From: Eledone cirrhosa
Taxonomy: Eukaryota
NCBI GenBank assembly: GCA_964016885.1
Contig: OZ024743.1
Location: forward strand, 343,542,001 to 343,606,000
Direction: 5' to 3'
DNA length: 64,000 nt
Shown here: positions 3,066-41,498 of the stretch, one piece after another
How positions within the stretch are numbered: position 1 is the first letter of the stretch
Layout: each line of letters begins with the position of its first letter
Translations under genes and position numbers: made by a program
Notes under the pieces: model-generated
The model's input: the letters and a program-made list of their open reading frames with translations, nothing else
What the model was told of the DNA's origin: nothing
Database searches by the model: none

Positions 3066-3104
3066 ATTTTCCCCAAGTGGATGCACGTCTTGAAAACAAT
3101 GACA
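3066..3104 (+). CDS. DYNC1I: Candidate 39-nt cassette exon of the dynein IC variable region, (D)FPQVDARLENND
   Basis: tttgctgctgctttccAG|...gaca|GTGAGT. Length is a multiple of 3, open in phase 1, with UGC repeats just upstream of the acceptor. Confidence 0.6.
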
Positions 3105-5905
3105 GTGAGTGACCGTTACATGTGAAATTTCAGGGATATTTGAACTTCTTTATCCTCCCCATTCCATTGCCTTTCATCTTACTACCGACTACTACTTTGA
3201 CATCTCTTCCATACCACCTTCACTAATTCATAAATTAGCTAGTGATGTTTTTATGCTCCAGTCCCCCTTTCCCCCCATTTTTAAAGATTCTCATATTCAG
3301 ATGCAATGCTATATAATAATAATAATCTAGTACTCTCTCTTAACTACTCATTCCTCTAAAAATAAAAGAAAACCAGTAGATAGTATACTTAATTTTTTTT
3401 TTAACATTAACGACTAAAATTTATTATTTTTTTTTGGTTGTCATCTGACTTTTGCGATGATCTTGTTTGCTGCTATGATGATATATTTATTTTATGCTTC
3501 ATGACTTCATTGCATCCCCATTATCCCTCCTCAAACTATTTTTGCTTCTTCAGCATGAATACTTGTTATCTTGTTTTTGTTATTGCCTTCCAATCATCAT
3601 CTCATGTCAGTTTGTTGGTTTGTTATATAAAACATAGCAAAATAAATAAAAAATACTCATCATTATTATTTATTTCTGTTCAGTTTGCTTTGAGAGAACT
3701 ATCAGAAATTATTGTAGTTTTATTCTCATTTAATATAAAAAAAACTCCTCCCTTGCAGCATCCTAAGGCCTCATGTTATTATATTTGATGTTATGTTTGA
3801 CTGAAGTTGTTTTTTTTTTTATCTATTGTGCTATTAAAAAAAAAAATTGTTTGTTCAGCAAGAGAAAAGAAGAACTGAAGGAATTTTTATCCTTTGTCTT
3901 TTCGACCTGATTAACTAACATGATCATGACCAATGTATTAGGGAAAGGCATGAACACCTGAATTTAACATTTTATCATCTCTAAAACTCTAAAACTTCAT
4001 ATTTATTTAAGGAGTTATTATTATCATCATCATTGTTGTTGTTGTTTATTAATATAAAAATCAGTATTTTTCTTACGTGGGAAATCGTTCAAGTCATCAG
4101 TTATTATTTTTTGTTGTTATTAGTTACACATCGTACCAAAACACTTCTATTATTGTTATTATTATTTCTATTTAAAATTTTGATTTCTAAAAATATATAT
4201 CAATATGAATTACTCCTATTTTTCGTTATTATTATTGTTAGAACATTGGACACAAAATGCATTGCAGTATTTAGTTATGGCTCTTTACATTCTGAGTTCA
4301 AATCCTGCAAATATCTACTTTACCTTTCATCCTTTTGGGGCCAATAAAATAAAGTACCACATAAGTCCTGGGGTTAGTATGATTGACTTTCCTCTTCTCC
4401 CAAATTGCTGGCCTTGTGCCAATGTTAGAAAGAATCATTTTGCAAAATAGGGCAGTAGATTGCCTTTTGGTATTTGTTCCAGCTCTTTTTACATTCTGAG
4501 TTGAAACCCTACAAAGGTCAATTTTATCTTTTATTTACCCTTCCATAGGAAATGAAATACAGTATCAGTAAAAAATTGGAGTTGATGAAATCAGTTAGCC
4601 ACTTCTCCCAAATTACTATGCTCAAAACAATTATTATTTGGAAAGTCAAATATCCAAGTACTTTTTACAAATAACTTTGAACTCTAAAAACCAATCATTA
4701 GCATTACTCTGTCCCTATATCTATCTGTCTATCTATCTATTTATTATTATTATTATTATTGCTATCATCATTATTATCATTATTTAGTATATTTGTGGTT
4801 TGCTAGGTTTGTTGCCTAACATTTGACTCTGATTGCAATCCTTCAAGTGTTGATTAAATATCAATAAGGTTCTAATAACATTTCTTGGGTATATTTGCTT
4901 TGACAGCACAGTGACACTGTAGATTGGAGAATACTATTTAGTTTTGCAAGGGTCAAGGCAACCTTGCAAGTGTTGGTATCATGATAAAATGTACCCAGTA
5001 TACTTTGCAAAATAGTTGGTATTTGAAAAGTGATAACAAAGTAGAGAGGACTCTATAGTCTTGTTGAGACAATTTCTCTAGTGCTTGAGCAACAATAAAA
5101 TGCACTCATTAAACTTTGTTGAATGATTTGGGTCAGGAAGGGCATTCAGTTGTAGAAGCCATGCTAAAAATGGAATGTATGAGTAAGACTGGGAAGATAG
5201 TAACTCCAAATAAAAATTGCCTTGAACAATAATGACCTGTCCAACCTATGCCAACATGGAAAGCAGATATAAAATGATGATGATTCTGGAATTGATTCAT
5301 ATTATACTTTCTAATCTTTAAATTTAGACTGTTACAAAGTCAAATATAGTTTCTTAAAAAAAGGATTATATATTTTCTCTTCTTTCTTACTGTTCTTGTA
5401 TTAATCTCATGAAAATTAGTTCCTTTCTTATTGAAATATCTGTTATTTATATCATCATCAGTAATTTAATTGTTCAATCCAACCTTCAACATTTACAAGA
5501 CAATAAGGTAGTCTCTAAAAGGATACTTGACCTACTAGAATAGCAGCCAAATCTCTCTAAAACCAACTTAAAGGGGGAAAATCACATATATAATGTGGTC
5601 CTAGATGTCTACTGAAAAAGAAATTAATGGTTTAGGCTGGGATACCTTTGATCATAGATCTGATCAATCAGGGATGACAGTGTTAAACAGCACCACCCTT
5701 CAACATTTACAAAGTTTCTATACAATGTGAGTTGTTTGGTAAAACTTCCTCATGAATGGGGTTACCATTACCTTCAATTGCTGCAGTGTTTTAATTGAGT
5801 ATTACATTAATCAGTTTGGAGATGTTTACAATAATTATATTTTGGACATTGGTGCTACTGTAACCCAAGTTATTGCACTTTGGTAGAGCAGTATAGTTGC
5901 ATTAA

Positions 5906-6113
5906 CCCTTTAGCATTTGAACTGGCCATATCTGGCCAGAATTCTTTCACCTCTTTCTCTTCAAACCAGCTGTAACCGTCCGCTTACACCGACATTAAGG
6001 TATTGTAATCAAAATAAATAATATCAAAATCTCATAGATTTGATATTATGTGAGGTAAAGCTTTTTCTTTGAAAATCCGATAGTATATATAGAGTAATGT
6101 GAATGCTAAAGGG
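5906..6113. mobile_element. piggyBac-type MITE, copy 1
   Basis: TTAA|CCCTTTAGCATT...AATGCTAAAGGG|TTAA: 12-bp TIRs with TTAA target duplication. Confidence 0.88.
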
Positions 6114-6330
6114 TTAAGGAAGTAGTTTGTAGAATTAAAATTGTGTTTTTCTGGATACTTAACCTAATATTTACAATACATTTTGATCAGTTCATGCTTC
6201 AATCATCAAGTGTGTTAATCTGGATTTTAAAATTTCAACATAGCCATCATATTTCAACAAAGTGTATTTCTTTACATTCAAGTGGCAATCCATGGTAACA
6301 TGGAAAAATGAATGTAAAATGATGAGTTAC

Positions 6331-6468
6331 ATACACACACGCACACACACGCGCACACACACACACACACACACACACACACACACACACACACACACAC
6401 ACACACACACACACACACACACACACACACACACACACACACACACACACACACACACACACACACAC
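6331..6468. repeat. (CA)n microsatellite
   Basis: Direct inspection. Confidence 0.98.
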
Positions 6469-39196: not shown

Positions 39197-39452
39197 CTAT
39201 ATATATATATATATATATATATATATATATGTTATAAAGTATATATACATATATGTTATAAAGTATATATATATATGTATATAGTATGTGTATATATATA
39301 TATGTATATATACATATACTATTTACATATGTATATATATATATATATGTGTGTGTGTGTATATATAGTATATGTACATATGTATATAGTATATACATAC
39401 ATATATATATATATATATATATATGTGTGTGTATGCTTGTGTGTATATATAT
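39197..39452. repeat. TA/TG microsatellite
   Basis: Direct inspection. Confidence 0.93.
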
Positions 39453-40193
39453 GTATTTAATACATGTAAGCTTAATTTAATACATGTCAAGCTTAAATCA
39501 TTTCCATGGTTGAATGCAAATTTCCAATCAAACATTGGGACAGTTTAAGCTTAACTGTTGGGTTTACATGTATTAAACAATAACTACACTCTTTCTTTAA
39601 AATATGAAGTACTAAATTGAATAATGGTCTTATTAGTAACATCTTATCCATTATATATGTAAATATATACACTATTTCTATTTTCTTAATTCCATCAACA
39701 TCAGCGCTTATTTATATTAATTTAATTTATATATCATTAATATTTAAAAAAACAACAAAAAAAACTATTAATCACTATCTAGTTTTCAAATAATTTTTTG
39801 ATTAATTTTCAAGTATTTCTTAACCATTTTTCTTTAAGTTATATTTTTTTTTAAATTAATATTTTATATAAAAATATACTTTATATATATATATATATAG
39901 GAAATATATGCAGTTCTAGTTTTTTTAAATATAAAATAAATGTTACCAGATTTATAGCAGCTCCACGTTATATAAATATAGATGTATATTGTAACTTTCC
40001 GTGAATCAGTGTGGGACATAATGAGGTCATAGAGTTAAGTTTAAATAACTCCCTCTAAGTTAAAGATAGTGTAATTTGAATATTTATTCTTTTCCCTTAT
40101 TTTTCAATGCCACAAAGAAATGTTAAATAAATTTATATTTAAAAAAATGTTTAATTCAATTTGTCAGTTTACCTGTTTTACTCTTCTTTCTGA

Positions 40194-41028
40194 TACATAT
40201 ATATATTTGAAGAATGTATATGTTTATGTGTATGTATATATATATGTACATATGTACATATATATATATATATAATACATACATACACATATATACATAC
40301 ATACACATATATACATACATATACATACACATATATACACATACATATAAATACATATATATATGGTGTATGTATGTACATATATATATATGTATTTATA
40401 TGTATGTGTATGTATGTATATGTATATATATTTTTATGTATATATATATATATATATGTATGTATATGTACGTATGTGTATGTATGTATGTATGTATGTA
40501 TATGTATATATACATACACATATATACATACATACACATATGCATATACATATAAATACATATATATATATATATATATATATATATATATATATGTATA
40601 TATATGGTGTATGTATGTATGTATGTATGTATATATATATATATGTATTTATATGGTGTATATATATATATGTATTTATATGTATGTATGTATGTATGTA
40701 TGTATGTTTGTATATGTACGTATATTTATATGTATGTATATATATATATATATTTATATGTATGTGTATATATGTATATGTATGTATGTGTATATATGTA
40801 TATGTATGTATGTGTATATATGTATATGTATGTATGTGTATATATGTGTATGTATGTATGTATATATATATGTGCATATATGTATGTGTACATATATATG
40901 TGTATATATATATGTACATATATGTATGTGTATATATATATGTGTATATATATATATGTATATGTACATATGTGTATGTATGTATATGTACGTATATTTC
41001 TCTATATATATATGTGTGTGTGTGTATG
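40194..41028. repeat. TA/TATG compound microsatellite
   Basis: Direct inspection. Confidence 0.97.
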
Positions 41029-41333
41029 GGTGTATTTTTCAATGTATAAGATGCACTTTTTAACCCCAAAATTTGTCAAAATCTGCCTACTTCCTATATA
41101 CCTAATAAAAATCTTAAATAGTTTTTTCTCCAACCTTTTTTAATCAAAATAAGTTTGCGACTTATACACTTGTGATGCATCTTATACTCCAAAGGAATAC
41201 AGTCTGCATGTCTTTATATATATATATATATATATATATATATATATATATATATATATATATATATATTGTAAAAATGATTGATCTCTATTCAAATGTA
41301 TGTGAACAGCCTTTAAAATTATTAACCATTTAG

Positions 41334-41498
41334 TTCTTGTTTATGATGATAATGGGCACACAGATGATGACACTGATTCTGTGGAAGCTTCCAGTGAGAC
41401 AGCACCCGCTCACCCACACAAGATGCCACATGTGGAGATGGTGCAGCCTGCCAAGACACAGCAAGAAATTGAACAGGAGTCCAAAGTTGAAAAATGGG
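41334..41498 (+). CDS. DYNC1I: Dynein IC exon (V)[12 protein letters not shown]...KVEKW
   Basis: tttAG|...tggg|GTAAGA, 165 nt, phase 1-1; joins in frame to 42662. Confidence 0.9.

Follow-up and report, generated by a model that had tools for sequence, protein, structure and literature searches.

What is gained by splicing a changing set of short exons into the linker of a motor subunit is the question raised by a stretch of 64,000 nt from the octopod Eledone cirrhosa (contig OZ024743.1, G000:C4:343542001-343606000; this whole stretch is called the window, and positions refer to it unless a contig is named), which contains the 3′ part of the gene for the intermediate chain (IC) of cytoplasmic dynein-1. 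The linker between the LC8 and Roadblock sites of IC is described as disordered and about 100 residues long, and a 2024 review asks whether it has any partner and how isoforms tune dynein without altered light-chain binding (PMC10886578). We propose that four optional in-frame exons and a choice between three acceptors vary this linker in octopods, that the 87-nt exon E would add a W-acidic motif docking on the kinesin-1 light chain (KLC), and that splicing would decide which dynein rides outward along axons. On balance we consider this proposal as a whole probable.

With 80 kb of upstream DNA added, the gene starts with an ATG at −55995 (window numbering extended upstream), and its final coding exon is at 52080-52205. 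Its exons were mapped on the Eledone DNA at 77–100% identity to Octopus proteins, with 92% for the exon starting at 42662. The O. sinensis orthologue, used as query, reached 39.2 bits for the Pfam family Dynein_IC2 (cut-off 25) and matched human IC2 with an E value of 4e-220; an N-terminal coiled coil, the TQT light-chain site, a WD40 propeller and the high similarity to IC2 identify the product as a cytoplasmic dynein-1 IC. The optional exons lie in the intron space from the TQT-site exon (end −14335) to the exon starting at 41310, 41334 or 41364 and ending at 41498, that is, C-terminal to the TQT site and N-terminal to the Roadblock helix. No Pfam family was found between residues 126 and about 300. 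Pfam, IC2 similarity and exon mapping thus bear out an earlier note on this DNA, which had recognized dynein IC with a variable part between these two sites.

Among 30 octopod isoforms, exons A, B, C and E (Table 1) were each included and skipped, in several combinations, as expected for independent cassettes; for these four exons the free combination supposed in the earlier note holds. A+C+E, B+C+E and A+B+C co-occur and the peptides are unrelated, which rules out a mutually exclusive array of the Dscam type. Public Octopus annotations (RefSeq/GenBank isoforms X1-X38) include A, B, C, E, the D/N-I-E extension of exon C and all three acceptors of exon G, and give no function. In RNA run X2 of a relative, a 176-nt contig joined A to E and E to position 41364, exon E matching with one mismatch and its ends falling precisely on 26212 and 26298. 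Exon A, which had been overlooked, is also present in the cuttlefish-type cluster, where A, C and E are unchanged and B is diverged (11/11 seen; YPKVDALLEDND in Sepia P0137). That the cassette cluster is real is virtually certain, and by orthology A, B, C and E are real exons in Eledone.

The range given in the earlier note ended in the constitutive exon 41334-41498, and the element added by its acceptor choice had been missed: use of 41334 adds 10 residues with the ancient element VLVYDD. Acceptor 41364 was used in RNA runs X24, X1 and X5, in each case from an exon ending in AG, and 41334 in X7 from the TQT exon; these joins are among the matches listed for exon G, a table crowded by a repeat at about 41926-42007. 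This high-copy short repeat was abundant in RNA contigs of all four runs examined at exon G. In X24, the run from E. cirrhosa itself, exon G was entered from the TQT exon with all cassettes skipped, since 41364 was entered from an AG-ending exon and no contig lay on exon E. Exon E contigs were also absent from X6 and X14; as assembled contigs drop rare forms, this does not prove that exon E is missing there.

In Eledone the 9-nt extension of exon C, which the earlier note had likewise missed, is preceded by TG instead of AG, within a UGC-UG motif (12347-12357). A separate 9-nt DIE microexon was rejected as no independent AG..GT copy was present in 144 kb. Either a non-canonical TG acceptor is used or the AG was lost in Eledone; in the fly 23 GT-TG introns are described, 22 of them with a nearby alternative (PMC4528330).

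A W-acidic motif is defined by a W flanked by D or E, with L or M at position −2 (PMC5450233). Exon E holds E-W-D with L at −2, so that its inclusion likely inserts such a motif, which had escaped the earlier note. The six residues NLEWDD, including the L at −2, are identical to the core of the SKIP WD peptide STNLEWDDSAI (PMC6214655). In molluscs, a moth and a nematode the core EW[DE]DEF is retained although the residues around it drift. With the residue at −2 the core reads [LM]EW[DE]DEF, L or M standing there in 67 of 71 core-carrying rows, which are isoforms and not independent. The pattern [LM][DE]W[DE] was found 0 times in 121,910 background residues, a weak comparison as these rows are homologous. 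No match to the exon E peptide was found among PDB sequences. The PWD of exon C, 26 residues upstream of the exon E motif, has neither L/M at −2 nor an acidic residue at −1. We also considered the Y-acidic KLC1 motif of JIP1 and TorsinA (D-x-Y-L-[DE] at or near a free C-terminus), which exon C does not provide, as it gives an internal DYYDD or DYYVL.

For a structural view, residues 155-185 of an O. sinensis isoform, whose exon E is identical to that of the window, were co-folded with the TPR domain of a limpet KLC (P0386) and with three controls. The score for KLC was 0.85–0.86 in three runs, while the best control reached 0.01. The mark reached by KLC is also reached by 51/78 solved versus 2/108 mismatched microbial pairs, and by 71/105 solved versus 2/126 unrelated eukaryotic pairs. 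Contacts were shared between the runs to 85% or more, with a pLDDT of 64–66 for the partner, and the tightest contacts were those of L176-E177-W178-D179 against TPR asparagines and their neighbours. Eledone has a canonical KLC gene, with best exons 87–99% identical to limpet KLC, and 19 of the 33 interface residues are covered by its exons, all 19 identical to the limpet protein. In our view there is a better than even chance that exon E docks on the TPR groove of KLC. One part of the canonical KLC gene lies on a chromosome (G000:C28, about 55.64-55.66 Mb) and another on the small contig C1030. A second, intronless and divergent KLC (L013:679-2133 on G000:C7, about 28.30 Mb) has a 485-aa frame with 43–46% identity to canonical KLC, keeps 25 of the 33 interface residues and is conserved in Octopus, Argonauta and one more cluster; it is likely an old retrogene.

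Exon E resembles SKIP and calsyntenin-1 in its core and in its predicted use of the TPR groove (PMC6214655, PMC5450233), but here the motif would sit in a subunit of the opposing motor and be switched by one cassette exon. A related case is known from mammals. In neuronal DIC1 two alternatively spliced loops carry WD1 and WD2, motifs which bind KLC and help to deliver dynein anterogradely; for the WD1 peptide and KLC TPR the KD is 7.6–9.2 µM, and a blocking peptide reduces anterograde dynein transport (PMC4893161). As in these loops of DYNC1I1, optional exons in octopus put Trp-acidic motifs into the N-terminal half of IC, which is described as disordered, and a ubiquitous form lacks them (PMC4893161, PMC2908135). 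Unlike the mammalian loops, which precede the Tctex/LC8 sites, the octopus cluster follows TQT; there is no sequence homology, and in octopus the motif combines L at −2 with the exact SKIP core. Orthology to the mammalian loops was rejected on position, as the human IC2 forms of 638 and 612 aa differ by 26 residues that precede TQT. Because the mammalian WD loops occupy another site of dynein IC, the two motifs are likely convergent. Kinesin-1 would then deliver dynein anterogradely as for DIC1, through a different site on the protein; the WD of exon C could be the second half of a paired motif, and the two SP-R/K sites in exon E may form a phospho-switch.

The elements of the cluster recur well outside octopods. 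Among 28 mollusc genus groups, many of which are represented by one sequence each, EWxD was found in 19, of which 13 have forms with and without it, and DYY and a VLxYD-like element in 17 each. Outside molluscs the elements keep their order; DYY occurs in insects, a springtail and a tapeworm, EWxD in a moth, a nematode (YEWDDEF) and a flatworm, and the VLxYD-like element in a mosquito, a springtail and flatworms, so that within this sample the three elements are protostome-wide by sequence. In insect Cdic/sw (moth P0219, mosquito P0221) DYY, LEWEDEF and VL-[FY]-D follow TQT in the same order, the moth reading AHATDYY DEYNLNPGLEWEDEF. The upstream cassettes differ, with GYMEDWWRPRK in the moth as opposed to A and B in coleoids. 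Exon E of molluscs starts with an additional SP-rich stretch, and the introns of the Eledone gene are 8–15 kb long. Fly dynein IC has at least 10 tissue-specific isoforms (PMC10886578). For an invertebrate version of splice-switched KLC docking in dynein IC, the literature search, which covered titles and abstract openings and left most subscription papers outside its scope, gave no hit.

The earlier note had read the cluster as two ancient cassettes with lineage-specific additions, together an expanded module. The ancient part stands for DYY and EWxDEF, and exon B was found in coleoids only within the sample; A has solely positional counterparts outside cephalopods, and the further units at 14277 and 28065 lack support. 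The expansion is not borne out. Bivalves and gastropods have three to five cassettes at this site (scallops and oysters four or five), and isoform numbering, which is influenced by sequencing depth and also reflects variable regions elsewhere in the gene, reaches X38 and X33 for Octopus species, X32 for Haliotis asinina, X29 for Magallana, X27 for Crassostrea virginica and X25 for Mizuhopecten and Ostrea. Numbering is comparable in abalone and oyster, and insects, a nematode and flatworms share the core motifs, so that the cluster cannot count as an expansion of cephalopods. For a D/S-rich exon of bivalves and gastropods, located between C and E, no homologue was found in octopus (best sense score 22, antisense 27, the 14277 unit 10). 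In P0045, P0121 and P0135 (oysters and Mya) a second variable block stands just before the Roadblock helix, and none is seen there in octopus isoforms.

Inclusion could be biased towards neurons, with Rbfox-type GCAUG behind C and E and UGC before B and C. Three of five supported cassettes (C, E and a 15-nt microexon described below) have GCAUG in the 100 nt that follow them, versus 8.9% of random donors (about P = 0.006, binomial calculated by hand). UGC precedes the acceptor in two of five (B, C), no notable excess over the 18% found for random acceptors. Exon C, with its length, UGC at −14 and an AG-free zone of 57 nt, resembles the neural microexons dependent on eMIC/Srrm4 (PMC8797185; bioRxiv 10.1101/2024.09.17.613571); these features are partial in B and absent in A and E, and A, B and E, with 33–87 nt, differ from such microexons in length. 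A 60-nt exon of mouse Dync1i2 is listed as eMIC-dependent, and the fly list holds a 33-nt exon labelled Sdic1, which may belong to sw (PMC8797185 Table S2). The main text of the bioRxiv study, which included O. bimaculoides, does not name the dynein IC gene in its accessible portion, and a search for SRRM_C in the Eledone genome, run without a working control, found nothing. Given the motifs and the precedents in fly and mouse, neural inclusion in octopus is plausible. The 15-nt microexon VWNRL lies between exons 2 and 3 (G000:C4:343499040-343499054), has GCAUG at +35, is included and skipped in Octopus isoforms and aligns near the first mammalian variable region. At 27352-27382, in the 15-kb intron between E and G, GCAUG, a pyrimidine tract and CAG GAAG GT could mark a 4-nt unit or a recursive splice site.

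Several points weigh against carriage of dynein by KLC under the control of splicing. A and B lack GCAUG and any recognisable motif, A and E lack UGC, and the same cassettes are present in bivalves and a chiton, whose nervous systems are modest. The octopod isoforms seen are 30 of the 103 sequences in the clusters found. RNA evidence consists of assembled contigs at exons E and G without tissue labels, and no own-species contig contained a cassette (0 on exon E in X24). The co-fold tool is uncalibrated for peptides and disordered chains, and the limpet KLC served as a stand-in. As complexes of KLC with peptides have already been solved (PDB 3ZFW presumably holds SKIP), the high score may show mere likeness to a known binding mode.

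One alternative is that the aromatic-acidic motifs are true linear motifs read by something else, be it the kinesin heavy-chain tail, an adaptor or a coat protein, and that they control organelle targeting instead of anterograde delivery. Readers of this kind include delta-COP with Wx(n)[WF], the clathrin W-box with PWxxW and the AP-2 ear, and WDDEF and PWDYY fit such patterns loosely. Fly isoforms reportedly differ in targeting, going by the title of a 1998 paper by Nurminsky. The kinesin heavy-chain tail too recognises W-acidic regions (PMC5450233), but the match to the SKIP peptide in all six residues, L at −2 included, and the validated role of DIC as a KLC partner in mammals (PMC4893161) make this alternative unlikely. 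Another view takes the cassettes as real but as passive tuning of linker length, charge or phosphorylation sites, or as acting inside the dynein complex, and regards the resemblance to W-acidic motifs as incidental. A and B, which lack an aromatic-acidic core and differ freely from class to class, and the SP-R/K sites of exon E would suit it, as would the description of the linker's function as unknown (PMC10886578). However, in a passive spacer one would not expect EW[DE]DEF, DYY and VLxYD to be retained between molluscs and insects with drifting flanks, and the co-fold contacts centre on LEWD; we regard such tuning as quite improbable.

The earlier note had proposed five cassettes, the units B, C, D, E and F, giving 32 isoforms. 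All five have AG/GT flanks, lengths of 39, 24, 24, 87 and 36 nt and an open phase-1 frame at the positions of Table 1, so the description of the sequence was correct. This description is matched by 1871 stop-free units of 6–120 nt and 3n length in sense and 1878 in antisense direction (55.6 kb, from the TQT exon to 41300); since any 3n unit inside a phase-1 intron is phase 1-1, these features are uninformative. When the sense units were ranked with a crude splice matrix, trained on the 14 acceptors and 14 donors of the dynein IC gene itself, C was second, E fifth, A seventh and B 55th, and 54 and 56 antisense units scored as high as F and D, respectively. UGC near the acceptor, as claimed, was found in B, C and F, and GCAUG in the first 100 nt behind C, E and F, while D and E had no UGC and B and D no GCAUG. 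With both motifs as additional filters C and F were the sole sense units left, together with four antisense units, and at least one unit passed in 42% of 378 local shuffles.

While isoforms and the RNA contig bear out B, C and E, the peptides of D and F were found in 0 of 366 proteins (216 proteins and 150 further representatives, the latter searched with three patterns for F and one for D), nor among the 30 annotated Octopus isoforms seen. The 32 isoforms derived from the five units are therefore not supported. The X2 contig, with E joined directly to 41364, skipped F. Known cassettes can fill all unseen isoform ranks, which leaves no slot for D alone; this argument is not decisive, as it assumes that rank follows length and borrows O. 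vulgaris names, and the O. bimaculoides ranks likewise include no form with A alone. D is probably noise, likely a pseudo-exon, and a real exon is highly improbable here; its flank has one partial second match, outside the exon. F is single-copy, so that a repeat could be ruled out, and is unlikely to be an exon. Its GC-rich island (28040-28150, 1.8 kb downstream of exon E) has three UGC, two GCAUG and a 6-bp hairpin over the AG, and may be a distal Rbfox or other regulatory element. Its fold z was −0.38, no exact complement of at least 11 nt with at least 5 G/C was found for long-range pairing, and Rfam gave nothing at gathering level, with weak matches solely on or overlapping the adjacent microsatellites. 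Although the low rank of the real exon B does not exclude D or F, which could be private to Eledone, and F keeps its motif-rich island, a cephalopod-expanded neural microexon array of all five units is very unlikely given the missing peptides, the antisense and shuffled background, the direct join of E to 41364 and the equal complexity of other molluscs.

Table 1. Exons and candidate exons of the variable region of the dynein IC gene, in 5′ to 3′ order.
Feature	Position	Strand	Remarks
Constitutive TQT exon	G000:C4:343527544-343527665		Upstream of the window
Cassette A, 33 nt, GNRYGSKGSSS	G000:C4:343535950-343535982		About 6 kb before the window starts; matches Octopus isoforms at 100%
Cassette B, 39 nt, FPQVDARLENND	3066..3104	+	6/30 octopod isoforms; three UGC at acceptor
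9-nt upstream extension of exon C (D/N-I-E)	12349..12357	+	3/30 octopod isoforms (P0007, P0020, P0024)
Cassette C, 24-nt microexon, RGPWDYY, ancient	12358..12381	+	Included in 15/29 Octopus isoforms
Candidate D, NNNLVGN	14277..14300	+	Unsupported; without UGC or GCAUG; rank 84/1871
Cassette E, 87 nt, SSPRFDSSRIGSPKFVYPNLEWDDEFAE, W-acidic LEWD, ancient core	26212..26298	+	Exact ends in X2 RNA contig
Candidate F, LSRLRLHLALD	28065..28100	+	Unsupported as exon; rank 78/1871
Constitutive exon G, three in-frame acceptors 41310/41334/41364	41310..41498	+	Octopus isoforms and RNA contigs
Constitutive exon H, Roadblock-binding helix region	42662..42821	+	Joined to exon G with zero mismatches in own-species RNA run X24

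Downstream of the dynein IC gene, an open frame of a LINE-type endonuclease-reverse transcriptase was seen at 62625-63998, extending past the end of the window.

The cassette array itself is no discovery, as its exons are annotated in relatives and fly counterparts have been known since 1998; what is new is the putative splice-controlled W-acidic motif. We see an evenly balanced case for the wider claim that protostomes and vertebrates independently evolved a splicing switch writing KLC docking motifs into dynein IC, the protostome form being the ancient DYY/LEWDDEF/VLVYDD cluster between the LC8 and Roadblock sites. If this is true, the long-known tissue-specific Cdic isoforms of the fly would be explained, the linker would gain its missing partner, and the hitching of dynein to kinesin-1 by splicing would have arisen twice.

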